Virus record (IMG/VR): IMGVR_UViG_3300045988_096734 | Coordinates: 1 to 40,778 of that record | Length of the DNA: 40,778 bases | Source: a virus | Strand: one strand, 5' to 3' | Shown here: in pieces, positions 7,432 through 40,778 of the stretch | Layout of the letters: each line of letters begins with the position of its first letter | Position numbering within the stretch: position 1 is the stretch's first letter | Notes under the pieces: generated by a model | Databases searched by the model: none | What the model was told of the DNA's origin: nothing | Seen by the model: the letters and a program-made list of their open reading frames with translations, nothing else | Made by a program: the position numbers and the translations under genes

Positions 7432-7647
7432 TTATCTAACTATCGTTTCTGCTTGTTCCTTGTACATCTTCCCCGCCATCTGCACCAGATAGTGCTGTAA
7501 GGCTTCATCCACGCTGACACGATGCTTGGTACAGTAGCGGTCAACGTACCGCTTAAAGTCGTTATTTTTTTGATAAAGTACTTCATATTCATCAAACTTA
7601 ACCTCGATATTTTCAATGTTGGTACAATCAACTCGTTCCATCTGCAT
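7432..7647 (-). CDS. Hypothetical protein
   Basis: ATG 7647 (MQMERVDCTN...) overlaps the upstream TGA, with AAGGAG 5 nt upstream. The track start at 7671 is probably too far upstream. Confidence 0.65.
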   Translation of the reverse strand: MQMERVDCTNIENIEVKFDEYEVLYQKNNDFKRYVDRYCTKHRVSVDEALQHYLVQMAGKMYKEQAETIVR

Positions 7648-8261
7648 CACACTCCTTCCGGCTTCTCGCACCGTTCAAATTCGATAACCCACACCCACGG
7701 ATTAGCGCCCCAACCGTAGCGGTCAATGTCGGATTTCTTGATGGTGCTGTTCCAAATCCCTATAAACGATGTGATTGTTTGGTCTTCATTTAATGTTCCA
7801 TTTGCATGAATGTACTTATCTGCTCCCTCAGTTAAAGCACTCTCTGCGGTTATTTCCTGCAACCGCTCTACCCTCACGTCCATAACCCGGAGCCAGATAC
7901 GTGCGGCTTGTTTTGGCATGTTGGTGGACGGGTGCCATGTGCAAAGGAAATCATTATCATCTGCTTTGTAATAATATCTTTCTTTTGCATTCATCAAATA
8001 TCCCTTACACCATGTTTCCCGGACATACAGGAGGTCACCCGGACAGATAGGACAGGTTCTCTCCACTGTACTTAACTGTTCCATATGCTCCTTATCAGCA
8101 AAGTTATGTACTGCATAAGTTCTCTTGTCGGCATTGTAAAATTCCATATCCGGCACGGTATACTCATTTGCATCTTTGCATATACGCCGGGTGCAGGTCT
8201 TCCGCCCATCCAGAATCGCCCGAACCATCTCTGTATTGAATAAAATCGGTTTAATTGCCAC
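7647..8261 (-). CDS. ASCH-like domain protein
   Basis: 204 aa. The N-terminus MAIKPILFNTEMVRAILDGRKTCTRR matches the pattern I associate with ASCH/PUA-like phage proteins. Confidence 0.6.
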   Translation of the reverse strand: MAIKPILFNTEMVRAILDGRKTCTRRICKDANEYTVPDMEFYNADKRTYAVHNFADKEHMEQLSTVERTCPICPGDLLYVRETWCKGYLMNAKERYYYKADDNDFLCTWHPSTNMPKQAARIWLRVMDVRVERLQEITAESALTEGADKYIHANGTLNEDQTITSFIGIWNSTIKKSDIDRYGWGANPWVWVIEFERCEKPEGV

Positions 8262-9639: not shown

Positions 9640-9929
9640 TCCTCACTTTCTTTCTGTAACCATGACAGACAACTTTGTTCTCTCTCATATTCCTTACCAA
9701 AACGGTTGTCAAAATTGATAATAAAATCTGCCAACTCCTCGTCCGTCATGCTCCTGATCCGGTCTGCGTTGGTCATTTTTGATTTGTAATTGTGAGCAAA
9801 AAGCCTTTTTTCATCCTTTGTAAGCCACTTAATCCATTTTCCGCATTTATTACAATAAAGTCCTGTTTGATATCCTTTCTCTTCAATAAAACCTTTTACA
9901 ATTCCGCATTTATTACAAGTCACTGTCAT
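9636..9929 (-). CDS. Zinc-ribbon protein with a DRIRSMTDEELA motif
   Basis: 97 aa, with CNKCG...CNKCGKW and then NADRIRSMTDEELADFI. Confidence 0.7.
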   Translation of the reverse strand: MTVTCNKCGIVKGFIEEKGYQTGLYCNKCGKWIKWLTKDEKRLFAHNYKSKMTNADRIRSMTDEELADFIINFDNRFGKEYEREQSCLSWLQKESEE

Positions 9930-9933
9930 TCTT

Positions 9934-10155
9934 CTACCTCGCTTTCTTCAACTTCCGCAGGACATATAATAGTGTCATCGCCAACTCCTTGTCCGTCATG
10001 CTCTGGATTTCATCTGCTCTAGTCATGGGTGCGTAATTTTCACAGTCTCTTTCTATGTCCTCATGCGGACAGTCATTGATTTTCTCGCACCATGAGTACG
10101 CATCAAAACCATTATCCTTTGTTTCTAAATTCTTGCAGTTATTACACTTCGCCAT
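9934..10155 (-). CDS. Small Cys-rich protein with the same MTD(E/K)ELA motif
   Basis: 73 aa, with MAKCNNCKN...C and RADEIQSMTDKELAMTLL. The C-terminal half is paralogous to 9636..9929. Confidence 0.7.
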   Translation of the reverse strand: MAKCNNCKNLETKDNGFDAYSWCEKINDCPHEDIERDCENYAPMTRADEIQSMTDKELAMTLLYVLRKLKKAR

Positions 10156-10504
10156 TATCTACCTCGCTTTCCCGGTACGGCTCCGGCAGTGGCATCCAGG
10201 CAATAACTTCAAATGTAATTGTCTCTCCGTCTGCATTGTTCCATCCGTGACCGTCATATCCGACAAAATACGGAAGTATATTTTCAAAATCCGTTTGTGT
10301 TGACGGCTCACAATCCATAACAGTTACCAAACATCCATATGATTCCTCCGGCAGTCTCTCGCTTACCGGAATCCACACCGGCTGATTCTGTAAGGCGGTG
10401 ATTGCCATTTGTAATGCTTCCTCACACAACTCAGAATCCCCAAAGTCATCTGAAAGCATATTGACTAATTGCTTAAGCATTTTGATAGCTTCTTCTCTTT
10501 TCAT
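10142..10504 (-). CDS. DUF551-like protein
   Basis: 120 aa. WIPVSERLPEE ... WMPLPEPY is the DUF551 signature. Confidence 0.75.
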   Translation of the reverse strand: MKREEAIKMLKQLVNMLSDDFGDSELCEEALQMAITALQNQPVWIPVSERLPEESYGCLVTVMDCEPSTQTDFENILPYFVGYDGHGWNNADGETITFEVIAWMPLPEPYRESEVDNGEV

Positions 10505-10989
10505 TCCGCACCCTCCATTTCTTTCAGCTTAGCTTCGGCTTCCTCTCCTGTGAGGAATACCGTTTTGCAAAAATCATTTCTTAGCCAAAAAATCTCATCA
10601 ATAGTTTTCATTTTGTATTCTTTAATTTCATAAAATTGTTTTTTACACAAAGGTTTATCTGCATATTGCGGATTAAGCACATAAAAAACTCCACCTTCAT
10701 CGTGACCATTCTTATTACCACACAAATCATCATCACAATGGCTTATTTTAAAGTCATTACATTTACAACAAGCATCTGTATTGTTTTCAATTTTATAAAT
10801 AATCGTGCCCACCTTACACGGCAACCGCAAGAGCAATCCCTGCTCTTCGGCATCCTCATAATCTGCTAATTTTGTAAGTACTTTTGATGCATAATCACTT
10901 ACCACAGGATATCCTTCTCTGTCTATCATTGACTTTTTGCTCATAGCAGTTCCATTAAAATTTCTTTTTCTTTCTGTCAGTCTCTCCAT
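10501..10989 (-). CDS. Hypothetical Cys-rich protein
   Basis: 162 aa, with the LADYEDAEEQGLLLRLPC motif that is common in Firmicute phage early regions. Confidence 0.7.
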   Translation of the reverse strand: MERLTERKRNFNGTAMSKKSMIDREGYPVVSDYASKVLTKLADYEDAEEQGLLLRLPCKVGTIIYKIENNTDACCKCNDFKISHCDDDLCGNKNGHDEGGVFYVLNPQYADKPLCKKQFYEIKEYKMKTIDEIFWLRNDFCKTVFLTGEEAEAKLKEMEGAE

Positions 10990-14490: not shown

Positions 14491-14983
14491 ATAGTTTCAC
14501 CCCCTCTCTATTCATTTCATCCAAAATGTAAAAATCATATTCTAATCGGTTCACTGCTGCGCACCAATCATCAGAAAAAACTGGAAAGCATTTAGCAAAT
14601 AGCTTTTGCATGGGTATGTCCTGCAGTATTTCTTTCTTCCATTGCCGCTTACGTTCCAGTTCTTTCCTCTTTTTCTCTTTCTTTTTTTGTAATTGATACT
14701 CGAATTTTTTCCGCTGCCAATCTGTCTTATGCTCGTACTCGCCGCCCAGCTTCAAAAATGCATCCTTGAATGAGCAATTATCCATCCGCTGAATGAAAGT
14801 GAAAATATCTCCATTCGCCCCACAAGCATGGCAGTGAAAATCTTTCTGGTAGATCTTCATGGATGGGCTGTGATCCCCGGAGTGGAACGGACAGGAGATA
14901 AAACCGGCTCTGTTTGGATGAAAACCATACATTTCCACCACATCACGCATGGAATACTGCTGCTTAATTTCTTCCGCTGTCAT
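14483..14983 (-). CDS. CHC2 zinc-finger protein (DnaG-primase zinc-binding domain only)
   Basis: 166 aa. Contains CPFHSGDHSPSMKIYQKDFHCHACGANGDIFTF. No TOPRIM motifs were seen. Confidence 0.75.
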   Translation of the reverse strand: MTAEEIKQQYSMRDVVEMYGFHPNRAGFISCPFHSGDHSPSMKIYQKDFHCHACGANGDIFTFIQRMDNCSFKDAFLKLGGEYEHKTDWQRKKFEYQLQKKKEKKRKELERKRQWKKEILQDIPMQKLFAKCFPVFSDDWCAAVNRLEYDFYILDEMNREGVKLFD

Positions 14984-15557
14984 CTTTGCTCAACTCCAAG
15001 AATTTCTCAAATTTGTCCATAGCTTTCAACTGATTGACTGTCGGCGGGTCGTTTTTGGCAGAAACATTCAGATGCTTTTCAAACAGTTTTGCCACATCTC
15101 GGCTTGCATTTTTCATGCCTTGTTCAACTCCCTGCCTGTATGTTTTCCCAGGTCTGTAATCATCAATCTGCTTTTTACCGGATCCTTGCCCGCCGGCTGT
15201 TTTGTTGCGAAGTTGATACCCTCCAAGAGCATATTTTTTGATGTAATACTGCTCTTTTTCGTCCAATAGTTCCTCCGGGAAGTTCAAAAAATTAACATTC
15301 CACCCGCACATATTGCTGTTGGAAATAAGACCATGCTTTTTTAAACTCAGATCAATGTGCTGATAACCCGTCATGTGCTGAGCCAACCGAGAGAGGATGT
15401 GCTTTGCCTGTCCGATGTAAGCGTATTTGATACCTTGTTCATCCTCTCTTGTCATAAAGTAGATACCGCTCTGCTCATTCAACTTTGGATTGATAAATAG
15501 GAGCCTTTGCTTAATCTCCCGTTCCATCCTTTTAATTTCTGCAATGCTCTTTTCCAT
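14964..15557 (-). CDS. GIY-YIG nuclease domain protein (free-standing, homing-endonuclease-like)
   Basis: 197 aa, containing SGIYFMTREDEQGIKYAYIGQAKHILSRLAQH. Confidence 0.7.
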   Translation of the reverse strand: MEKSIAEIKRMEREIKQRLLFINPKLNEQSGIYFMTREDEQGIKYAYIGQAKHILSRLAQHMTGYQHIDLSLKKHGLISNSNMCGWNVNFLNFPEELLDEKEQYYIKKYALGGYQLRNKTAGGQGSGKKQIDDYRPGKTYRQGVEQGMKNASRDVAKLFEKHLNVSAKNDPPTVNQLKAMDKFEKFLELSKDDSGRN

Positions 15558-15562
15558 AGGCT

Positions 15563-16159
15563 TTAATTAAACGGTAATTCTTCATCAATGCCGTCAGGAA
15601 TATTCATAAATCCATCAGATCCGGGGGCTGTATTCTTCGGTCTTTCCTTGTATGCTTTGGTTTCTGACAGATCTGGGATCACTGCATCCGCAACCTTGTC
15701 CATTGAGCAGAACCACCGAAGGACACGCTTTTTCTTTTCCTCACCGTTGTAAAAATCCATCTGCTCGCCAAATACACCGCCGATCTTTTTCCCTTTGATT
15801 CCAGCAAAATCAAACTGATCATTCTTCCAACAAGTGAATCCGGTGTTGGAGTTTTCTACGCAAGTACAGAACGTTTTGAAACTACGGGAGCACTTTCCGT
15901 CCTGATCTTCCGTCAGAATGTACTGCGTGCCCTGATTAGACCACTTTTTATCCGGTCGGCTGTCATTCTGAAAAGAATCCATGAAGTAGTTCGGCTGCTT
16001 ATCATCCGGTGCAAAATCAAACAGCACTACGATCATATGCTTTCCGTTTTGAGACTGCTTCTCACTTACCTGCTTGATAACCATCTTATGTCCACCCAAC
16101 TCCACCGGTGTCCATTCTTCCTGTGCCTGTGTTTCCTCGTAATTATTCGGTTTTTGCAT
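15563..16159 (-). CDS. DUF669-like phage protein (single-strand-DNA-binding-like role proposed for this family)
   Basis: 198 aa with an acidic C-terminal tail ending DGIDEELPFN, which is typical of SSB-like partner-binding tips. Its position between the ATPase and the primase is typical. Confidence 0.55.
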   Translation of the reverse strand: MQKPNNYEETQAQEEWTPVELGGHKMVIKQVSEKQSQNGKHMIVVLFDFAPDDKQPNYFMDSFQNDSRPDKKWSNQGTQYILTEDQDGKCSRSFKTFCTCVENSNTGFTCWKNDQFDFAGIKGKKIGGVFGEQMDFYNGEEKKKRVLRWFCSMDKVADAVIPDLSETKAYKERPKNTAPGSDGFMNIPDGIDEELPFN

Positions 16160-16358
16160 TTTTATCCTCGCTTTCTTTGTCTAAATCTTCGCTTCTTTTG
16201 TCTAAAAATTCCCTGTTACTTTTTGCTTTCCATTTGTAATAACTGCATTTTTCGATTGTGTCAGTAATTGCTATGACAACGGTCAGAAGAAAAATAAAAA
16301 TCAGAATAAACAACAAAAATTCCAAATTTAATACCTCCTTAAATCTCGTAATATTCAC
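16143..16358 (-). CDS. Small membrane protein
   Basis: 71 aa, with TM segment FLLFILIFIFLLTVVIAI. Confidence 0.6.
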   Translation of the reverse strand: MNITRFKEVLNLEFLLFILIFIFLLTVVIAITDTIEKCSYYKWKAKSNREFLDKRSEDLDKESEDKNAKTE

Positions 16359-16965
16359 GGATAGCCTTTTCCACCAACAACAGATCGTTGTCGATGGTCA
16401 GTTCATCAAACATTCCCATAGGAGACTTGCTGATTGCTCCGTCTGCTGACTGGGTGACGAATAAATGCTTTCCAGATTCCTCAATACACCGAAGGACGAT
16501 AGTAAACATACCCTCGATACATACTTTTTCATCCAAAATCTTGCCGATTGTTTTTGCCTTGATCTGTCCGAAGTCGTTCTGCTCCTCGTGCATCATTATG
16601 TACACGATTTTTTCCTCCGGCAGCTTGTCGGTGATAAATGTGATTAGATTCCAGAAGGAATCACCGATCTTGTTATAAAATGAAAAGATTGCGTTTCCTG
16701 CTCCCTGGCTCGCATGACCATTCATAAACTGGTTGGTAATCAGATACCCTGCATCATCCAACACGATGTTTTTTGCTTTGGCAGAATAAAGGCACTTCAT
16801 GACGGTTTGGTAATCGTCCGTCTTCCAACCGTTAATTTTCCCTTTAAAGGGCAACGGCTTATTTAATACTCTGATGACATTCCAGTCATCGTTTCCAGAG
16901 CAATTTCTCATGCTTGTGCTCTTTCCTGCTCCAGATTTACCTATAATTAATACCGGTGTTGCCAT
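16339..16965 (-). CDS. P-loop ATPase (Sak4/AAA_24-like position in the replication-recombination module)
   Basis: 208 aa. Walker A is IIGKSGAGKST at the N-terminus, and IVLDDAG is Walker B-like. Confidence 0.7.
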   Translation of the reverse strand: MATPVLIIGKSGAGKSTSMRNCSGNDDWNVIRVLNKPLPFKGKINGWKTDDYQTVMKCLYSAKAKNIVLDDAGYLITNQFMNGHASQGAGNAIFSFYNKIGDSFWNLITFITDKLPEEKIVYIMMHEEQNDFGQIKAKTIGKILDEKVCIEGMFTIVLRCIEESGKHLFVTQSADGAISKSPMGMFDELTIDNDLLLVEKAIREYYEI

Positions 16966-18620: not shown

Positions 18621-19193
18621 ATGGAAGAAACAAAGAAATGTAAATACTGTCAATCAGACATTCCGAAGAAAGCTACGGTTTGTCCAGTATGCAAGAGGAA
18701 ACAATCAAGTACACTTAAAGTAGTTTTGATTTGTCTTGCTGTGTTTTTTGCGATTGGAATTGTTGGCTCTTTATCAGATGATTCCTCTGACAGTTCATCG
18801 AGTTCTACCACAACGCAAAAGCAGAGCACATCTGCATCCACGAAAGAAACTACTGTGCAACAAGAAGAAGTAATTGAATATACCGCAATTACGGTGGAAC
18901 AGCTTGACAACGATTTGAAAGACAATGCTTTGAAAGCAACCGATTCTTACAAAGGAAAATATTTAGAAATTACTGGCAGACTTTCAAATATTGATTCAAG
19001 CGGAAAGTATATCAGTCTATCGAATGACGAATTTTTAGATGTTTACGGTGTGCAGTGTTATGTAAAATCAGATGAGCAAAAACAGAAAGTCATGGACATG
19101 AAAATAGATGAGCATTACACTATCCGAGTAAAAATTAAAGATGTCGGAGAAGTTATGGGATATTCTGCTGATATAATTGAATTTGTAGACTAA
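18621..19193 (+). CDS. Zinc-ribbon / single-TM / Ser-Thr linker / OB-fold (tRNA_anti-like) surface protein, a candidate superinfection-exclusion factor
   Basis: 190 aa. Contains CKYCQSDIPKKATVCPVCKRK, TM segment VVLICLAVFFAIGIVGSL, an SSDSSSSSTTTQKQSTSAS linker, and YKGKYLEITGRLSNIDSSGKYISL. Confidence 0.65.
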   Translation: MEETKKCKYCQSDIPKKATVCPVCKRKQSSTLKVVLICLAVFFAIGIVGSLSDDSSDSSSSSTTTQKQSTSASTKETTVQQEEVIEYTAITVEQLDNDLKDNALKATDSYKGKYLEITGRLSNIDSSGKYISLSNDEFLDVYGVQCYVKSDEQKQKVMDMKIDEHYTIRVKIKDVGEVMGYSADIIEFVD

Positions 19194-19241
19194 AGATTAA
19201 GCCACTTTTATAGTGGCTTTTTCTGTCAGAAAGGAACATTA

Positions 19242-20594
19242 ATGATTAACTGTGCAATCTACCCACGTAAATCCAAAGCCGTGGACAACTCCGACAGCAT
19301 GGATGTGCAAATTGATATGTGCCGCCGGTACCTGGATGACAAGTACGGCTCCGGGAATTACACTGCCAAGGTTTATGATGGAGACTACGGGATCACAGGA
19401 CACTCCACCAAAAAGAGAAAAGACTTTCAGCGAATGATGCGGGATGTGTCTGATAGAAAAATTCAGCTTGTTGTCATTCAGCGGTATGACCGTATCGCAC
19501 GTAATACCCGAGATTTCTGCAACCTATATCACGACATGGAAATCAACGGTTGCAACCTTGTCTCCGTCAGTCAGCAAATCGACACCACTACACCCTATGG
19601 AAAGAACTTCATGTATATGCAGGCATCAATGGCAGAGTTGGAATGGGCATTAAACTCTGAGAGGAGAAAAGATACCATCCGGTATGCAGCATCTATCGGG
19701 AAGTCTATACTACCGGATCACTCTACACCGTTTGGATACCACAACGCTGTCGTGAATGGAGTGCGCAGACTGGTAAAGGAAGAACAATGGGAAGATGCTG
19801 TTGCGGATCTGTTTGAATACTATCGAAAATATCGAAACTACTCTGCCACCGCCCGGCATATCAACCAACAGTACGGTACAAGATTTGAGATTCAGGCTAT
19901 CAAGCGTATAATCCGCAGCCCTTTTTATTATGGATGTTACAAGGATAATGATAATTTCTGCGAGCCATACATATCTAAAGATGACTGGCAGGATCTCCAA
20001 CAAAAGAGACCAGTTATACGCACTGCAGGAAACAAGCGGACCGAGGTATTATTCTCCGGTATGATCCGGTGCCCGGAGTGCAATCGGCTGATGCGGTCCT
20101 GTCAGAAGAGCCACCGAAGCGGTAATGTGTACCGGTATTATCACTGCGAATACCACTCAGCCAGAATGTGTGGATTTTCCAAGGTGAAATCCGAGAATCT
20201 TATCGAGGAGATGCTGCTGAACCGGGTCGATACCTTTTTGGCAGAACGTGAAGCAGCTATGTCGGATCAGAAATCTGAGAAAAAACACTCCACCAACAAT
20301 GCCACAAAATACCGGGAAGAACTGGACAGGCTCAACACAATGTTCCTAAAGGGCAGAATAAGCGAGGAATACTATGACACGGAGTATTTAAGGATCAATG
20401 ATTTAATAGGGCAATATGGGGATTCTAGGCGGTCTCATGACAGCATTAAGCACTTGCGAGATGTGTTTGTGTCAGACTGGAAAGAAATGTACAAGGATCT
20501 CGATAAACTGCACCGAAAATTCTTTTGGCGGGACGTGATCCGGCAGATAATCGTTGATGATAACATGAATGTGATTGATGTTATTTTTTTATAA
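19242..20594 (+). CDS. int: Large serine recombinase (integrase)
   Basis: 450 aa. The N-terminal resolvase-type domain has AIYPRKS...VVIQRYDRIARN. The recombinase domain has the zinc ribbon CPECNRLMRSC...YYHCEYH and a C-terminal coiled-coil-like region. Confidence 0.85.
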   Translation: MINCAIYPRKSKAVDNSDSMDVQIDMCRRYLDDKYGSGNYTAKVYDGDYGITGHSTKKRKDFQRMMRDVSDRKIQLVVIQRYDRIARNTRDFCNLYHDMEINGCNLVSVSQQIDTTTPYGKNFMYMQASMAELEWALNSERRKDTIRYAASIGKSILPDHSTPFGYHNAVVNGVRRLVKEEQWEDAVADLFEYYRKYRNYSATARHINQQYGTRFEIQAIKRIIRSPFYYGCYKDNDNFCEPYISKDDWQDLQQKRPVIRTAGNKRTEVLFSGMIRCPECNRLMRSCQKSHRSGNVYRYYHCEYHSARMCGFSKVKSENLIEEMLLNRVDTFLAEREAAMSDQKSEKKHSTNNATKYREELDRLNTMFLKGRISEEYYDTEYLRINDLIGQYGDSRRSHDSIKHLRDVFVSDWKEMYKDLDKLHRKFFWRDVIRQIIVDDNMNVIDVIFL

Positions 20595-20620
20595 CGCTTT
20601 TGGTTACCTTATATGATGGT

Positions 20621-20634
20621 TGCTTGAGCAAGCA
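20621..20634. other. Candidate attP core (dyad TGCTTG-AG-CAAGCA)
   Basis: A perfect 6-bp dyad around a central AG dinucleotide lies 27 nt after the integrase stop. No host flank is available to confirm it. Confidence 0.25.
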
Positions 20635-20654
20635 TCAATTAAAGTAGTACATAA

Positions 20655-20687
20655 AATCCCCCGCCGGATCTGATCCGATGGGGGATT
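20655..20687. terminator. Bidirectional terminator between integrase and endolysin
   Basis: AATCCCCC...GGGGGATT long hairpin with an inner CGGATC/GATCCG pairing. T-runs follow on both strands. Confidence 0.7.
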
Positions 20688-20692
20688 GATTT

Positions 20693-21460
20693 TTATGCTG
20701 CCAGGTACTTTCTTGTGGTCTTACCCGCCAGTCCGTCTGCAGTAATCTTGCAAGACTGCTGATATTTAATGATAGCTGCTACGGTCTTCCGACCACAGAT
20801 ACCGTCGATATCATCTTCTGTCAGCAATCCGGCTTCCATGAGTTCCCACTGAATCCACTTGACACCCTCACCCGCGGAAATAAATACCTTGATATTCTTC
20901 TTCCTTGCCTGTGCCTTACTGGTTACCGTCATGGTAGGCTCTGTGTAAGGGTTGGTTCCCTTCCAGGTTCCCGGTACCTTTACATCGTAGGTGTAATCCA
21001 TATTCTTAAAAGTCAAGCCATATACCCATTTTGTCGCGGATACCTTGCTCATGACTGTACCATAGTTAATGCCCTTTGCTTCAATACACATAGGGACGCC
21101 ATTAACCTTGCCGATATAAACACCTACGTGTCCGGATTTCCACAGGACAGTTCCTACTGCAAAATCATTAATCTTTGCAATCGGCATCCTGGTGTATGCG
21201 GTCTGATAGAGTTGGTAGGAGCCGATGTTAAGCTGTCGGTAACCGGCAATCAGTCCAGAGCAGTCCACATTAACCTTGCCGACCTGCCCCTTTCGCCGTG
21301 CTTTTGCCATGTAGAAGGTGGTCACGACCTTGGGATACATAGTGTGCATGGTGCTCATCTTGCGTTCCGTCAACGCACCCTCATGGATTTTGGCTCCGTA
21401 AAAATATGGAGTGCCAAGACGTTTTTTTGCGTATGTAACTAATTCGTTTCCTGTTTTCAT
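20693..21460 (-). CDS. Endolysin: NlpC/P60 endopeptidase plus a C-terminal PG_binding_1-like domain
   Basis: 255 aa. NVDCSGLIAGY (catalytic Cys) ... GHVGVYIG (His). The C-terminus has VKWIQWELMEAGL...DGICGRKTVAAIIKYQQ...ADGLAGKTT. Confidence 0.85.
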   Translation of the reverse strand: MKTGNELVTYAKKRLGTPYFYGAKIHEGALTERKMSTMHTMYPKVVTTFYMAKARRKGQVGKVNVDCSGLIAGYRQLNIGSYQLYQTAYTRMPIAKINDFAVGTVLWKSGHVGVYIGKVNGVPMCIEAKGINYGTVMSKVSATKWVYGLTFKNMDYTYDVKVPGTWKGTNPYTEPTMTVTSKAQARKKNIKVFISAGEGVKWIQWELMEAGLLTEDDIDGICGRKTVAAIIKYQQSCKITADGLAGKTTRKYLAA

Positions 21461-21520
21461 TTTATTTTCCTTTCTGTATTTTTTAATAATTGTTATGTTT
21501 TTAATCTCCGCCCATCTGCT

Positions 21521-21817
21521 ATGACTGCTTCTGTAAATGGCAAGTTACCACAATTAAAAGTACTTAAAATACCGTTAGGCGTAAAAACTACACTAAACCC
21601 TGGAATTTTTTCGCTATTATTTCCAACAAAAAAAGAAGGTTATACTCCAATAGCCATTAAATCATTGGCTTTGTTTAACAGAGACGGGGCTGATAATATA
21701 CATATTAATGGTGTTGTAACAGATCAGAATGTGTCAATAGAGGGTAAAATATCTGGATCAAATCAGATAATTATACCGTCCGATGCTTTTGTCGAAGTAT
21801 TATATTTAGTCAATTAA
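21521..21817 (+). other. Promoterless, RBS-less alternative tail-fibre C-terminal cassette (currently in the silent orientation)
   Basis: The ORF reads MTASVNGKL|PQLKVLKIPLGVKTTLNPGIFSLLF.... It is convergent with the fibre gene, and the two stops are 2 bp apart. It shares the in-frame 16-bp repeat encoding VNGKL with the fibre gene. Confidence 0.7.
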
Positions 21818-22168
21818 ATTTATAAATAAGGTTTTAAACAAATTGCGGCAAGAGTTCCTCTATAGGTGAGATCGGATGTTACATTAACAAAGTCATAAGT
21901 GGATAAATTGACAGTGGTAGTTGTATCTATCCCTCTTAAAATTACGTTTATACTTCCACCACCGCCAATCATTGATTCTCTAACAGTTTGATCGAAAAGG
22001 GTATTATTGTATATAAAATCAGATGATATATTGCCATCAATATATCCAATTATTAACCACAAACCAGGAGTTAACGTTATACTACATACTGTTACATTTT
22101 TATTTAATTTTTGGTTTTTATATTGACCTGTTTTTTGTTCTATATTCATTTCTAACTTGCCATTTACA
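21532..22168. mobile_element. Putative invertible DNA segment (G-segment-like) bounded by 16-bp perfect inverted repeats
   Basis: TGTAAATGGCAAGTTA at 21532-21547, and its exact reverse complement TAACTTGCCATTTACA at 22153-22168. The flanks are unrelated and both copies are in frame. Confidence 0.65.
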
Positions 22169-23166
22169 TCATTTAATCCCCCAGTGATAGTACCGTCACC
22201 AATAGTCGAAATATCGGTAGTTCCGATAAGACTTATAAGTGATTTAAGATTTTTTACAGCCAGTTTAAGTTTTCCAAAAATAGATGATAACTTTTCTCCT
22301 GTCGTTAATTCCTCTAAAGTTGTTGCTTCTTCAAACGCCGCAGTCAAATTACTACCATCACCAGTTTTGGTCAAATAATTTGTCAAATCTGTTTTTGGAA
22401 TTGCATCTATTTTTTTATCAATATTGATTTTGTCATAATAATTTTCCAAATCAGAAACTGATTTTTTAATGTATCCAGCATCATTTTCTAATTCGCTAAC
22501 TTTTGTTGGAATTCCTCCTGTTTGCTGTTTTGCCTGCTCCATATAATACTTTGCGTTATCGGTATCTTCTCCTTCTCTTGTTCCGGTTCCACCTATTGCA
22601 TAAGATTCAGCCAATACAGATTTTGCATTTGCGGATTGCGCATAAGCAGATGCATTTGCGGATTCTACTCTAATATCTGCTAAATAATTAGGCTGCAGCA
22701 TATCATCTGTTACTGATCCTGTTTTTATCGAAAAAGAATAAGTCTTATTCTTTCCAGTACCAGTCACGGATACAGCTATGGTTGCAGAATCTTCAAATGT
22801 TAATACCGGAATCATAGAACCAATATCAGCTGTAAACTGTGTTCCATCTTCTGTAGTCATGGTAATGATTCCGTCATCAGACATGGAAAAGCCAACAGGT
22901 ATTTTTTCAATATTAAGGTCAAAAATAATCTTTTCACCGTTGTATTTTGTAATAGTAATAACACCGGTTGTTTCATCCATAGTCCAATCAGCAATATTTC
23001 CGTTTATTGCAGACTTGTCTACTTTTAAGGCATCCTGTGATATGATACGGTTGTCCAACGCATCAATAGCAGAATCCATCTGATTAAGATTGTATGCATC
23101 TAAATCCGTGTTTTCACTGGGGTAATCTTCCCAATTAATCCTGGTATAAACCTTATTCATTGCCAT
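21820..23166 (-). CDS. Tail fibre / receptor-binding protein (variable C-terminal tip after residue ~338)
   Basis: 448 aa. The N-terminus MAMNKVYTRINWEDYPSENTDLDAYNLNQMDSAIDALDNRI is a common Firmicute phage fibre N-terminus. The inverted repeat lies at ...GGLNDVNGKL|EMNIEQK. Confidence 0.8.
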   Translation of the reverse strand: MAMNKVYTRINWEDYPSENTDLDAYNLNQMDSAIDALDNRIISQDALKVDKSAINGNIADWTMDETTGVITITKYNGEKIIFDLNIEKIPVGFSMSDDGIITMTTEDGTQFTADIGSMIPVLTFEDSATIAVSVTGTGKNKTYSFSIKTGSVTDDMLQPNYLADIRVESANASAYAQSANAKSVLAESYAIGGTGTREGEDTDNAKYYMEQAKQQTGGIPTKVSELENDAGYIKKSVSDLENYYDKINIDKKIDAIPKTDLTNYLTKTGDGSNLTAAFEEATTLEELTTGEKLSSIFGKLKLAVKNLKSLISLIGTTDISTIGDGTITGGLNDVNGKLEMNIEQKTGQYKNQKLNKNVTVCSITLTPGLWLIIGYIDGNISSDFIYNNTLFDQTVRESMIGGGGSINVILRGIDTTTTVNLSTYDFVNVTSDLTYRGTLAAICLKPYL

Positions 23167-23356
23167 CTGCGGTCACCTCGCTTTCTTTTTCTCTGTTTCT
23201 TTCAGCCAACTCTACATTGATTTGATTGTCTGCGGCTCTGTTAATTTGCCCGGCAATATCATTCACAATGAGCCGCTTAACCTCCATCGGAAGACCACAT
23301 TCGTTGATAAGATTTACAATTGCCTGTTCAAATTCTCTGATTTCTAAGCTGTTCAT
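23153..23356 (-). CDS. Hypothetical protein (67 aa)
   Basis: ORF in the tail operon between the Tal-like and fibre genes. No TM segment. Confidence 0.6.
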   Translation of the reverse strand: MNSLEIREFEQAIVNLINECGLPMEVKRLIVNDIAGQINRAADNQINVELAERNREKESEVTADGNE

Positions 23357-23366
23357 ATTCCTTCTC

Positions 23367-25514
23367 CTATCCTATGAGGTTGTATGCCTTAAGAGCATCT
23401 ATCAAGCTGTTTAATGTGGTAGCAATACTATATGTGCTGGTTGAACTTGGTGAAGTGATTTTGCTCACAGTCTTTTTTGTTGAACCACTTGTCGCACCAA
23501 AAAACGCTACATTACCACCGCTTTTTCCAACTAACACATTTCTCGCAACCACTGAAAAATGATCGGTAGAAATGTAAGCTAAATTATTGCCATAATTGTC
23601 CTTTAAATAATATGTTCCGCTGCTGGATGCCCAAGTGGTTGCACTTGCATATATATTTAAAAACCCTCCACTTCCACGAATTTGTATTCCTTCACTAGTT
23701 GCTTTTGAATAATTTAGTGAAGAACCTACACTTATTTCACTACTTGTGATTTTCGTTGAAATAGAAGATGCAGCAAAAGAAATTCCATTTCTATCCAACG
23801 ACATAGAATTTCCGCCAGATGAAAAACTTATTGTTCCAAGACTTCCAGATATTTTTAAGTCACCTTCCAGTGTTGCATCTTTCAAATTTGCACTTCCGTC
23901 TGCTTTCAAAACTACTTTATTCCCAAGTGATATACCATCTGTGCCAATATATACACCACTGCTTCCAGTACCCAAAGAACTAGAACCGTAATACATTTTT
24001 CTTGATTCAATTGTAAATCCGGCAATATTTCCGCTTGATGCAGTTATTTTTCCAGATAGGTCAACATCTTTTGCGGTTATTTTTCCTTCTTTAGAAATAG
24101 AACAGTTTGTTGCAGAAAGAACAAATCTATTCCCGGAAATACTTACCTGCCCGCTCTCAATGCTCAACTGCGAACTGACATCACCTTTGGAGACTTTCAG
24201 TTTAATTTGATCTGACTGCAAAGATATTGCCGCTGCCAATTCTACTTCTGCATCTGTAGCCCTTTTTGCTTCAAGTTCAATCTTTCCTGCTGTCTGTGTA
24301 ATCTTCGTATCCAGGCCATTCTCTACATCCTTGATTTCAGACCGAGTTTCCTCAACAGTACGTTCTAACTCATTTGTTTTTCCAAGTAATTGCTTAATAT
24401 CATATTCATAACCATTTACCTTTTTGGTACGGTATTCTTTACCTTCGCTAAAATAACTGTCTTGCAATTTCTGAATACCATTTAAGGTTCTTTGCATTAC
24501 ATACGTGTAAACTAAATCTGTTTTTGTATTTACTCTGATTCCGTCACCGACTTCTATACAAGGATTTCCTTGCGCTGTAATTTTTGCCGGTCTGTACCAT
24601 ATTCCGTAAATAATACTAAGGACATTGTCTGCTATGATCTGCAACTCTTTTGCAGATTTTCCATATACCAAAAAATTGTTTTCAATAATATAGCAGTTAT
24701 TTCCAGTACCGGATATTGCACCAATATCACTTTCAGTCTGTCGAATTTGTAATTTATCAATTTTTTTGCATATATAATCTTCGTATTGGCAAGATATGTA
24801 ACTGTTGCCCGGAACTTTTGTGACATTTGTGTTAGACTGAGGATATAACCCTTTTTGAGGATATAACCCTTTTTGGGGATACAATCCCTGGCTCATCATC
24901 TGCAAAATTATGTACTGAAGTTTTCCATTTCTACCAAAATGTCCAAAACATCCGTTTATTTCACAAATTGCTTCTAATACTTTTTTACCTGACAATTCAC
25001 TTGGATTTATAGTTTTTTCAACTAGCATTGAATCGTTTACAAGACTAATTGTCTCAGAATCAATACCTAAATATTCGCAAAAACTGTTTCGAAAATTTAA
25101 TAATGATAAAGGAAACGCTAAACTGTTGTACCATGCAGATACGTCGGCATTTGCAACGTCGTACATTTTGTCATAAGCTGTGATGTCTCTATATTTTCTA
25201 TCTCCAGATTTTTCATCAGATATTACATTATAATAACCATATTGGAATGGTTTTTCAGAATGTTCTCCCAAAATAGAAAAAACACTAAGTTTTTTGTTTT
25301 TTAAACTGCTGACGGAATTTGTTACACGAAATTTCAGTTCAGATGCTTCACAACATCCAAAACGTAATTCGTTTTCCGAACAAAGTCCCTCTTTCAAAGA
25401 CCATTCCTCGCAGTGCAAATCTGTATTGTCGAGTGTACCGCCATTGAATTCAATATACATTTCTCTCTTTATGGAATTTTTAAGAAATAATGATTCATAT
25501 TCGTAATTAATCAT
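23367..25514 (-). CDS. Tail-associated (Tal-like / prophage tail endopeptidase family) baseplate protein
   Basis: 715 aa, two genes downstream of the tape measure. The N-terminal region is typical of siphovirus Tal proteins, and the C-terminus is rich in beta-helix-like SG/T repeats. Confidence 0.7.
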   Translation of the reverse strand: MINYEYESLFLKNSIKREMYIEFNGGTLDNTDLHCEEWSLKEGLCSENELRFGCCEASELKFRVTNSVSSLKNKKLSVFSILGEHSEKPFQYGYYNVISDEKSGDRKYRDITAYDKMYDVANADVSAWYNSLAFPLSLLNFRNSFCEYLGIDSETISLVNDSMLVEKTINPSELSGKKVLEAICEINGCFGHFGRNGKLQYIILQMMSQGLYPQKGLYPQKGLYPQSNTNVTKVPGNSYISCQYEDYICKKIDKLQIRQTESDIGAISGTGNNCYIIENNFLVYGKSAKELQIIADNVLSIIYGIWYRPAKITAQGNPCIEVGDGIRVNTKTDLVYTYVMQRTLNGIQKLQDSYFSEGKEYRTKKVNGYEYDIKQLLGKTNELERTVEETRSEIKDVENGLDTKITQTAGKIELEAKRATDAEVELAAAISLQSDQIKLKVSKGDVSSQLSIESGQVSISGNRFVLSATNCSISKEGKITAKDVDLSGKITASSGNIAGFTIESRKMYYGSSSLGTGSSGVYIGTDGISLGNKVVLKADGSANLKDATLEGDLKISGSLGTISFSSGGNSMSLDRNGISFAASSISTKITSSEISVGSSLNYSKATSEGIQIRGSGGFLNIYASATTWASSSGTYYLKDNYGNNLAYISTDHFSVVARNVLVGKSGGNVAFFGATSGSTKKTVSKITSPSSTSTYSIATTLNSLIDALKAYNLIG
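24841..24894. repeat. 18-bp tandem repeat x3 (third copy degenerate) inside the Tal-like gene
   Basis: GGATATAACCCTTTTTGA / GGATATAACCCTTTTTGG / GGATACAATCCCTGGCTC, encoding GLYPQK GLYPQK GLYPQS on the minus strand. Confidence 0.85.
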
Positions 25515-25515
25515 A

Positions 25516-25914
25516 TCAATATCCTATAAATGCAATTCTTAATGGTGCATATTGTATTTTGTTATCTTTTATAGTTTGTATCTGAGGTTGCGGTTCTGCC
25601 ATATACGCATCCTGCGTTACATATCCGTTATATTCCAATATAAAAGCGGTAATTGTAACTTTTCTTTCCAATTCATTGATATAGTTTCTACGGATCATAT
25701 CCATGATTTGTTCATATTGTTCATTATTTAACGGGATAGTTTCAAACTCGCACTTGATAGGTACATGGGAAAGAGCTTCCCTATGCAATAAACCATTTGC
25801 ATCTCGATATGAGTCAAGGTCCTGAACAGAAACATATCCCTTGTATGTTTTTTCTTTTATATACTTCATATTGAATATTTCATTGCCTATTTTTAATAAA
25901 AACCCGGAATACAT
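25516..25914 (-). CDS. Distal tail protein-like (small)
   Basis: 132 aa, immediately downstream of the tape measure. The call rests on position only. Confidence 0.5.
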   Translation of the reverse strand: MYSGFLLKIGNEIFNMKYIKEKTYKGYVSVQDLDSYRDANGLLHREALSHVPIKCEFETIPLNNEQYEQIMDMIRRNYINELERKVTITAFILEYNGYVTQDAYMAEPQPQIQTIKDNKIQYAPLRIAFIGY

Positions 25915-34221: not shown

Positions 34222-34974
34222 TTATGCAATTGTGGTACCGTTATAATACCCGGCATAAGTCTGTCCACAGCAACAGTACGGGTTCTGTACCACGTATGCC
34301 GGTGTAGGACTGGGTCTCAACTGGTTTACAAGGTACTGGTTCTGTGCGCTCTGAGATGCCGCAAGCTGCAAGGAATTGATCTGCTGATTCTGCTCAGCAA
34401 TACGCTGATTAAGAGCTTCAACCTTGTTAGCCTGGATTGCTTCAAGGATTGCACGGGTCCCTGCGTTCTGACTTTCGATAATATCTCTAGTGTTATTAGA
34501 GTTATTGAAATTCGTCTGGCAGAAACCACTCTGAATCGCATTGTTGGTAGCGTTTGCATTCTGCAGTGCATCGTAGCGGTTCTGGCAGCAACAATCTGCG
34601 ATCTGAGTCTGCAAACCGTTGAATCCCTGCATCATTGCCACATTGGTAGCATTGCCCTGAGTCAGAATGTTGGTGTTCACGCCATTGATAAGTTGTGCCT
34701 GCGTGTAAAAGCCATCGCACATCCCGGTGTTGACACTATCAATCTTGCGCTCTATGTTGGCAAAGTCGGAAGTCAGAATGTATCCGTCTGTTGCGGATCC
34801 AGAACCGTTGCCATTGCCAAACAGTCCATTTCCGTTTCTGCCAAAGCCAAAAAAGGCAAAAATCAGAAACAGGACGATCATCCATGCACCGTCTCCACCA
34901 AATCCACCATAGTTATTGCCGTTTTTGTCACCCTGTAAGAGAGCAACATCACTTGCTGATAATCCGTCTGTCAT
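34222..34974 (-). CDS. Hypothetical membrane-anchored N/Q/G-rich, Cys-cluster protein
   Basis: 250 aa. The N-terminus GNNYGGFGGDGAWMIVLFLIFAFFGFGRNGNG has a Gly-flanked TM segment resembling tiny YjcZ-type sporulation peptides. CCC and CCC clusters (IADCCCQ, NPYCCCGQ) are present, with a long N/Q-rich helical region. Confidence 0.7.
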   Translation of the reverse strand: MTDGLSASDVALLQGDKNGNNYGGFGGDGAWMIVLFLIFAFFGFGRNGNGLFGNGNGSGSATDGYILTSDFANIERKIDSVNTGMCDGFYTQAQLINGVNTNILTQGNATNVAMMQGFNGLQTQIADCCCQNRYDALQNANATNNAIQSGFCQTNFNNSNNTRDIIESQNAGTRAILEAIQANKVEALNQRIAEQNQQINSLQLAASQSAQNQYLVNQLRPSPTPAYVVQNPYCCCGQTYAGYYNGTTIA

Positions 34975-40289: not shown

Positions 40290-40778
40290 TATGCGCTCGT
40301 ACCTCGCTTGTTAAACATTGATTCCGTTGCATACCTATCCGCATCAATACAATGATTGTCTTTATCCGGATAACCGCTTATTATGTTTCCATCTTTGTCT
40401 CTTTCATATTCATACTCTGTATATTCCTTGTATGTGACTGGTGTTCTTTTTGGGTCAATAACATGTGTATATCCTTGTAATGCTTTCATTCCATAATCAA
40501 CAGATCCCGGACCTTTTTTTGCACCAACAGCCGGTAATCCTGCATCCTTAAAATCATTTATGGACTTGGGTTCCGCACTATCACAAGTTATTCTATAATC
40601 ATTATATCCATGACTTATGATCCATTCTGCATTGTCAGAATTTTTAGTCTTATTCACACAATGTTCTGCTATGTGATAGATTTTTTTTCGATTTACATCA
40701 ACATACAATCTCTTAAATGCAAATATGTCCGGATACCATCCCCAATCAACTCCTTGAACTATTCGATCAAAATGAGAA
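40289..40778 (-). CDS. terL: Terminase large subunit, C-terminal (nuclease) part. Continues from 1..1208 through the wrap
   Basis: The frame is open to the window end. ...DSAEPKSINDFKDAGL...DKDNHCIDADRYATE is the RNaseH-like nuclease motif. The track shows only the TTG-initiated fragment 40289..40708. Confidence 0.9.
   Translation of the reverse strand, partial: SHFDRIVQGVDWGWYPDIFAFKRLYVDVNRKKIYHIAEHCVNKTKNSDNAEWIISHGYNDYRITCDSAEPKSINDFKDAGLPAVGAKKGPGSVDYGMKALQGYTHVIDPKRTPVTYKEYTEYEYERDKDGNIISGYPDKDNHCIDADRYATESMFNKRGTSA
40680..40778. repeat. Second copy of the 99-bp wrap-around overlap
   Basis: Identical to bases 1-99. Confidence 0.9.

Follow-up and report, generated by a model that had tools for sequence, protein, structure and literature searches.

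The 3′ end of a tail-fiber gene in IMG/VR record IMGVR_UViG_3300045988_096734 (positions 1–40,778, a stretch of 40,778 nt that we call the window) carries a short inverted repeat, which encloses two convergent coding segments, tip A and tip B. The gene is the last of a tail module that runs from a tape-measure protein through a DUF6711 protein, a 715-amino acid protein, and a 67-amino acid protein to the fiber. The repeat unit, the 16-mer TGTAAATGGCAAGTTA, has exactly two copies in the window, one on each strand. No further copy was found in the window at up to two mismatches, and 0 of 100 shuffles reached two matches. Perfect inverted repeats of at least 16 bp within 1 kb arose in 1% of 200 first-order Markov-simulated windows, with a mean of 0.03 per genome. 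A first-pass annotation had described this repeat as perfect and its flanks as unrelated. Exact and mismatch-tolerant searches both recover it, and the flanks are indeed unrelated save for a short CTAT(c/g)ACT stretch farther from the repeat that was noticed by eye.

Both repeat copies are translated in frame as VNGKL, one within the fiber gene and the other within the convergent open reading frame (ORF), and the stop codons of the two ORFs (21820–21822 and 21815–21817) are 2 bp apart, all as first annotated. That annotation also described the plus-strand ORF as lacking a ribosome-binding site and a promoter. Reading the sequence before position 21521 revealed nothing like a Shine–Dalgarno sequence, and no promoter-like site lies on the plus strand between 21006 and 21980; nor is there a competing minus-strand ORF of at least 21 amino acids inside 21461–21819. 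Inverting the segment in silico reproduces the predicted in-frame fusion, which yields a fiber of 427 amino acids (338 constant plus 89 residues) together with a silent ORF of 119 amino acids, also in frame. Transcription of the late operon through to the endolysin gene must cross the antisense of the silent tip. The features of the locus are collected in Table 1.

The inversion exists in natural populations, and its breakpoints are exact. When window positions 19000–25600 were aligned by blastn with the relatives L001, L002, L004, and L011, the flanks were colinear and the 605-bp segment lay on the opposite strand, with breakpoints inside the 16-bp repeat; the high-scoring pairs of the reversed segment and of its flanks overlap exactly on that repeat. 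Relatives whose fiber and tail flanks are 93–97% identical to those of the window occur in the other state. The 119-amino acid ORF, which belongs to the flipped state only (MTASVNGKL plus tip A; P0017), is present verbatim in public assemblies, on three contigs and each time beside a convergent 427-amino acid gene, and flipped products predicted in silico for other lineages were also found verbatim. L036 and L049, which come from different samples and separate sequencing runs, differ at 2 of 9,665 bp in one flank and 0 of 1,187 bp in the other, and their segments are inverted relative to each other. Because the repeat is shorter than any assembler k-mer, the two orientations should not be artifacts of assembly graphs. 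Among the first 53 related loci that we collected, 11 of 21 distinct outside flank types are joined to tip A in some contigs and to tip B in others, including three fiber types and two noncoding flanks of the orphan cassettes described below. Natural variants in both orientations, with breakpoints in the repeat, thus bear out the proposal of a G-segment-like cassette that exchanges the fiber tip. We regard the segment as very probably a real site-specific tip switch. The window phage itself may switch actively and at high frequency, and the inversion would be expected to change host range.

Table 1. Features of the invertible locus and of neighboring genes in the window
Feature	Position	Strand	Remarks
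Invertible segment, 605 bp, two convergent tip-coding halves	21548–22152		Reversed relative to colinear flanks in L001, L002, L004, L011, L049
IR-L, left recombination site	21532–21547	+	On silent, noncoding flank
Family-wide 14-bp core TAAATGGCAAGTTA in IR-L	21534–21547	+	Conserved in ~170 loci
IR-R, right recombination site	22153–22168	−	Inside fiber gene; encodes (D)VNGKL, residues 334–338
Tail-fiber ORF, 448 amino acids	21820–23166	−	Currently fused to tip A
Constant N-terminal part of tail fiber / receptor-binding protein, 338 codons	22153–23166	−	Last gene of tail module
Tip A, 110 codons + stop	21820–22152	−	Currently fused to fiber; predicted C1q/TNF-like jelly-roll knob
Convergent ORF, 98 amino acids	21521–21817	+	Carries tip B
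Tip B, 89 codons + stop	21548–21817	+	Silent; joined only to 11-nt pseudo-leader ATGACTGCTTC at 21521–21531
Endolysin, NlpC/P60 + PG_binding_1, 255 amino acids	20693–21460	−	Downstream of fiber in late operon
attP of the large serine recombinase	20596–20660	.	Palindrome TGCTTG-AG-CAAGCA at 20621–20634; not core-like
Large serine recombinase (phage integrase), 450 amino acids	19242–20594	+	Pfam Resolvase + Recombinase + Zn_ribbon_recom

Variation within the repeat helps to place the strand exchange. One sublineage carries a fiber-side site with a G-to-A change at position 8 of the 16-mer (TGTAAATAGCAAGTTA, which encodes NSKL), seen in L036, L037, L038, L040, and L049 as well as in protein P0042. 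Between L036 and L049 the changed base remains on the fiber flank after inversion, and the silent flank retains G. Since the inversion does not move this base, the crossover must lie 3′ of it, within GCAAGTTA. The GCAATTTA (GCAA[G/T]TTA) variant, where it occurs, is present in both partner sites of a cassette (L045, L029, L019), whereas variants of the left part (TAAA/TAAC, G/A) differ between partners. This pattern is consistent with a requirement for identity in the right-hand part only. A short asymmetric site with a 7- to 8-bp identity region would resemble the sfx sites of Rci and the rix sites of Rin more than those of Gin or Hin, although a serine enzyme with a 2-bp core could equally produce the right-hand covariation. 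In one lineage the NSKL site accompanies tip A only, in 40 contigs versus 0. It may be a partly locked allele, but the evidence is ambiguous, since the NSKL site of L049 has flipped at least once. A Xer/dif-like reading of TGTAAAT was rejected because of its orientation and because, on inspection, only TAAAT/TAACT is conserved there.

These sites also bear on whether any dedicated enzyme is required. Rare short-homology recombination or template switching at the 14- to 16-bp repeat, perhaps helped by RecA or by phage single-strand annealing proteins and followed by selection, could in principle account for the two states. No invertase was found anywhere we searched, the population data carry no rate, and every backbone encodes a single-strand annealing protein (RecT in L046/L047; in the window an AAA_24, Sak4-like protein at 16339–16965 with an SSB-like protein at 15563–16159). 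One rare product also resembles aberrant recombination: P0059 (201 amino acids, two contigs) is a chimera of a flank, the first 79 residues of tip A, GKL, and the entire tip B, and represents either aberrant recombination at a pseudo-site in tip A or an assembly chimera. However, breakpoints always fall in the same 14–16 bp, partner sites covary in the right-hand 8 bp only, and the near-isogenic pair L036/L049 differs by the inversion alone, save for the two flank mismatches. Moreover, the DNA of the core is identical on noncoding silent flanks and in orphan cassettes, where flipping has no coding consequence. Repeats of 14–16 bp are also below the usual minimal homology for recombination by RecA or single-strand annealing proteins. 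We therefore consider an enzyme-free origin unlikely. As a separate observation, the replication module of the window places a GIY-YIG-like protein of 197 amino acids (14964–15557) next to the SSB-like and Sak4-like proteins, and the three look like a single-strand annealing recombination set.

The two tips themselves are not detectably homologous to each other. A faint common motif had been taken at first as a sign of kinship, but pairwise BLASTP gives 22% identity over 64 columns with E = 0.069, and homology between tip A and tip B was dismissed as not significant. A single-sequence AlphaFold2 (AF2) run on the tip A region reached a predicted local distance difference test score (pLDDT) of 32, and we used an alignment-based model instead. 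That model (pLDDT 72.8; predicted template-modeling score, pTM, 0.67) is an eight-stranded jelly roll that matches gC1q and C1q/TNF-type trimeric heads (Foldseek TMq 0.60–0.65) and, in BFVD, the C termini of phage tail-fiber proteins (E from 1e-4 to 1e-3). The ratio of nonsynonymous to synonymous substitution rates (dN/dS) for tip A is ~0.35, and the variants indicate that tip A is under purifying selection. Tip B has a sister family at 44% identity, 16 of its 17 nucleotide variants keep the ORF intact, and the tip is fused to full-length fibers in L001, L002, L004, L011, L049, and others.

The silent tip of the window could nevertheless be a fossil, its 98-amino acid ORF a decaying remnant of a switch that no longer turns. 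At residue 44 of that ORF, a Trp conserved in over 24 other loci (KSWALF) is replaced by Leu (KSLALF), and this change may have slightly damaged the window copy. Close variants of tip B differ little and mostly at nonsynonymous positions, so that dN/dS exceeds 1 on few changes, and the exact 427-amino acid flipped fiber of the window phage was not in the database searched. Against this, the two repeat copies match perfectly, the tip B frame is unbroken, three contigs carry the exact 119-amino acid flipped ORF with the same MTASVNGKL leader, and relatives with fiber and tail flanks 93–97% identical to those of the window are in the other state. Loss of switching in the window copy is thus highly improbable.

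The element is a member of a large multicassette family and not a one-off. Scanning IMG/VR for the 16-mer returned at least 120 stretches and added 116 loci to the first 53; comparison with relatives, which the first-pass annotation had proposed for the detection of the same repeat with other cassettes, thus found the core in ~170 loci with different tips. The 116 further loci include 74 convergent site pairs 450–950 bp apart and 87 different sequences directly inside the site. The first 53 alone hold at least 16 tip families of ~85–120 amino acids, nearly all mutually unrelated (few pairs among the 16 are related), and tip types across the whole family number in the dozens. Every tip that we examined is preceded by the 14-bp core TAAATGGCAAGTTA and starts at a fixed NGKL junction. 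Variants of the core begin TAACTGG, end in GCAATTTA, or contain ATAGCAAG. No conservation extends beyond the core on either side in the sequences compared (over 23 flanks outside the site and 18 to 87 sequences inside it), and on silent flanks, which are noncoding, the core is preserved as DNA sequence.

Cassettes are not confined to one position or one kind of tail. Many prophages, among them L042–L045, L029, L019, L017, L020, L033, and L006, have a second, orphan cassette past the lysis genes, at the end of the prophage. It is bordered by noncoding DNA on both sides, yet it is seen in both orientations (L042/L043 versus L044/L045). Some prophages have the A/B tip pair at the fiber and others have it in the orphan cassette, and no inversion of the lysis module that separates the two loci was seen. 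These two tips terminate the fibers of at least six unrelated constant regions. One of these is a protein of 146 or 167 amino acids, the last of a P2-like myovirus baseplate module (gp25/W, J, I; L132–L151), so the cassette is shared by siphovirus- and myovirus-type tails. A gene for a 263-amino acid CI/LexA-like repressor abuts the cassette in L001, L011, L012, L046–L053, and 62 of the 116 later loci; its transcription runs toward the silent site, and the gene shares ~40 nt with the silent ORF. The main family with this neighbor consists of tyrosine-integrase phages of 55–60 kb. Considered as a candidate recombinase, this helix–turn–helix protein was rejected, because it is a CI/LexA-like repressor and is missing from the window.

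The carriers are phages of human-gut Lachnospiraceae, and the window phage is temperate and of siphovirus type. Source names attached to related proteins are Waltera, Acetatifactor, and Lachnospiraceae bacterium, and the host flanks of prophages carry tig-clpP-clpX and a gene for a small acid-soluble spore protein (SASP). The bacterial attachment site, attB, lies in the 3′ end of this SASP gene beside tig-clpP-clpX, and integration replaces the last codons of the gene, which identifies the host as a spore-forming member of the Lachnospiraceae. Neither GenBank phages nor GTDB genomes scanned with cassette-specific patterns matched the cassette (0 matches in GTDB). The endolysin gene beside the segment is replaced between phages that are otherwise 94–97% identical. 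The NlpC/P60 + PG_binding_1 enzyme of the window (255 amino acids) gives way in relatives (L004 at 9846–10961; L034–L041) to a Glyco_hydro_25 lysin of 336–371 amino acids at the same position.

If the segment is a site-specific switch, the window does not appear to encode the enzyme beside it. A 99-bp terminal direct repeat (1–99 and 40680–40778) and a large terminase ORF that spans the ends show that the window is a complete circular genome of ~40.68 kb. When all plausible window ORFs of 130 amino acids or more were scanned against Pfam, PHROGs, and NCBIfam, a single recombinase emerged, the large serine recombinase (LSR), whose XisF/Ccr-like NCBIfam match is below cut-off. It was likewise the sole recombinase among the window ORFs in phmmer searches with Hin, LSR, XerD, Cre, and a phage tyrosine integrase as probes. 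The initial view that there is no small Gin/Hin/Cin-type invertase here, and that the only recombinase is the LSR ~0.9 kb away, therefore holds. Beyond the window, Hin and LSR phmmer probes found no small serine invertase in the ~170 related loci. No PF00589 or XerD/Cre-like ORF was found in the window or within ~5–10 kb of any cassette, the XerD probe having been validated on a positive control. Across ~959 kb around the 116 further cassettes, the only serine or tyrosine recombinase detected was the LSR in three loci of the window lineage.

The LSR is the obvious candidate, and the first-pass annotation had suggested that it might double as the invertase, integrating at attB in the SASP gene and inverting a segment 0.9 kb away. 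The genome is complete and has no other recognizable recombinase, and the LSR gene is close to the cassette, although this proximity is explained by the position of attP between the integrase and endolysin genes; indeed, the prophage junctions of L034, L037, and L038 (about 8880) break at this attP. Two sequence likenesses point the same way. An AG dinucleotide, read from the sequence, lies in the inferred crossover region as it does at the center of attP, and the best non-self match in the window to the right arm of attP, CAATTAAAGTAGTACATAAAATCCC (20636–20660), is the start of tip B just inside IR-L (CAATTAAAAGTACTTAAAATACC, 21551–21573; score 29, next best 26). However, this similarity is neither conserved nor covarying in the orthologous attP sites of L004, L035, and L036 and is probably chance or an ancient relic. 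The 14-bp asymmetric site with its variable outer flanks is not a 40- to 50-bp quasi-palindromic att site. Serine integrases of this kind recombine attP and attB unidirectionally without a recombination directionality factor (RDF), whereas circular-form contigs are seen in both orientation states. The same circular forms rule out a toggle by integrase and RDF, in which prophages would hold one state and circles the other. Above all, the identical core occurs in both orientations in backbones with a tyrosine integrase, such as that of L001/L050, with no serine recombinase in the DNA seen. On this comparative evidence, a bifunctional LSR is the least supported of the three enzyme options in that annotation, and we consider it about as improbable as an enzyme-free origin.

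Relatives of the L001/L050 backbone carry a 403-amino acid tyrosine integrase at the prophage end, and such an integrase is present on at least 25 of 123 cassette-bearing IMG/VR contigs. No homolog of the 403-amino acid protein was found in the window, no core-like sequence lies within 6 kb on either side of the tyrosine integrase at 78 loci, and a search with the N terminus of the integrase returned fragments only. An unrecognized phage protein could also be responsible. The window contains several ORFs of 160–250 amino acids without family assignment, and candidates lie at 7647–8261, 14964–15557 (the GIY-YIG-like protein), 34222–34974, and 10501–10989. Yet among the core-bearing backbones compared (the window, the tyrosine-integrase backbone, the two-cassette prophages, and the myovirus-type modules), only tail, lysis, and methylase families are visibly common to all, and the neighbor in the main family is the repressor, which the window lacks. 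We judge a cryptic phage-encoded invertase to be quite improbable.

We instead favor, as the probable explanation, a minimal shufflon that consists of one segment at the fiber gene's 3′ end and is served by an unlinked, trans-acting invertase. In this scheme, recombination would occur between two inverted copies of the short asymmetric site with core TAAATGGCAAGTTA, with strand exchange within GCAAGTTA. Each inversion would swap tip A for tip B, unrelated C-terminal knobs of ~90–110 amino acids, in frame after ...VNGKL, and would leave the unfused tip without promoter and start. Populations of lysogens would therefore release virions of alternative receptor specificity. The recombinase would most likely act in trans, not being encoded beside the segment and not being the LSR, and a candidate source is the invertase of the host or of a co-resident element. 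It is likewise probable that an enzyme other than the LSR provides the inversion activity in trans. Most plausibly it would be a tyrosine-type enzyme like Rci or Rin, a candidate favored because the site is short and asymmetric and contains a covarying region of 7–8 bp.

Several considerations weigh against this explanation. The two orientations were never seen together in one sample; P0068 and P0037, two states of one receptor-binding protein (RBP), share no sample among the 20 places listed, and rare events with selection could yield the same population picture. The absence of a recombinase rests on recognition of the Pfam/phmmer type, and the other backbones are partial contigs. The link between the tyrosine integrase and L001/L050 is made through the shared backbone, integrase and cassette standing on the same contig only in L012/L072. 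The match between the attP arm and the start of tip B, as far as it goes, favors the LSR. Finally, a role for the tips in receptor binding is suggested by their position and by a medium-confidence model.

It is useful to contrast the segment with the classical host-range switches. Like the G segment of Mu (Gin), the C segment of P1 (Cin), and the P segment of e14 (Pin), it is an invertible segment bounded by inverted repeats inside a tail-fiber gene, with a constant N terminus, tail-to-tail alternative C termini, and a silent copy without a start. As in those systems, the constant N terminus is joined alternately to two C-terminal segments, and both fusion products occur in nature. However, the window lacks an adjacent small serine invertase of ~190 amino acids (Resolvase + helix–turn–helix). 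Its segment is 605 bp long, compared with ~3–4 kb for the segments of Mu, P1, and e14, and contains no U/U′ chaperone genes. Its site is a 14-bp asymmetric core, without dyad symmetry by inspection, instead of a 26-bp quasi-palindrome with a 2-bp core, and its host is a Gram-positive anaerobe. The Min system of p15B and the R64 shufflon (tyrosine recombinase Rci, 19-bp asymmetric sfx) are closer in their short asymmetric repeats, each with a conserved arm and a crossover region, and in the many alternative C-terminal cassettes of the family. Relatives with four sites and two cassettes could in principle shuffle their tips. By comparison, the window has a single segment with only two sites, no recombinase gene abuts the array, and its relatives have their cassettes partly at the fiber and partly at a distant orphan locus past the lysis genes. 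The segment thus lacks the defining features of the Gin family (an adjacent small serine invertase and a 26-bp palindromic site) and those of a classical shufflon (an adjacent tyrosine recombinase and, in the window, more than one segment).

The closest published precedent that we found is a recombinase-less inversion in prophages of Bifidobacterium. These prophages carry a shufflon with the tyrosine invertase Rin and 11-bp rix sites (Mavrich et al. 2018, PMC6109161), together with a second inversion of ~500 bp at an 8-bp repeat that no recombinase gene flanks; its invertase, the authors suggested, acts in trans (PMC6109161). Both there and here, a temperate siphovirus of the gut varies the C terminus of its RBP by inversion at very short repeats, but the host phylum and the repeat differ and the proteins are unrelated. 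The evidence is far broader here: it draws on ~170 loci and many backbones, on mapping of the crossover, and on orphan cassettes. Since the window genome is complete, the absence of a recognizable invertase can be demonstrated, unlike in the Bifidobacterium case. RecV of Clostridioides difficile is a trans-acting invertase. Mpi of Bacteroides fragilis, a trans-acting master invertase, is cited in PMC6109161 and PMC9881135. As with these enzymes, one unlinked recombinase would serve many dispersed regions with a repeat consensus, although Mpi and RecV flip host promoters and genes, and the targets here are the coding ends of phage RBP genes in unrelated prophages. Indeed, the cassettes are dispersed invertible regions that share a repeat consensus without a linked recombinase, which is what characterizes the orphan invertons of a master invertase. 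Phage tail genes are among the frequent targets in a systematic survey of inversions that alter genes (PMC9881135), and our literature searches found no description of the core sequence or of this Lachnospiraceae phage family.

The switch may be relevant in several respects. First, the family constitutes a modular set of natural RBP tips at a fixed NGKL junction, useful for the engineering of the host range of phages against uncultured Lachnospiraceae. Second, the core sequence (search form TAAMTGGCAAKTTA) can serve as a marker of invertible phage loci, which metagenome assemblies silently collapse to one orientation. Third, inversion-based host-range switches are textbook material for Mu and P1, but few descriptions exist for phages that infect the dominant Firmicutes of the gut. 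With a complete genome that has a working-looking switch and no invertase, and with a site common to unrelated integrase and tail types, it becomes testable whether phage tropism in the gut is controlled by the phage, by its host, or by a neighboring element.

Finally, the enzyme could be a communal recombinase of the Lachnospiraceae host or of a co-resident element, serving dozens of tips across unrelated prophages, a possibility that we advance tentatively. If so, unrelated prophages of siphovirus and myovirus type would flip the tips, store them in orphan cassettes, and trade them with one another, and the tropism of a phage would be switched by an enzyme from outside its own genome.

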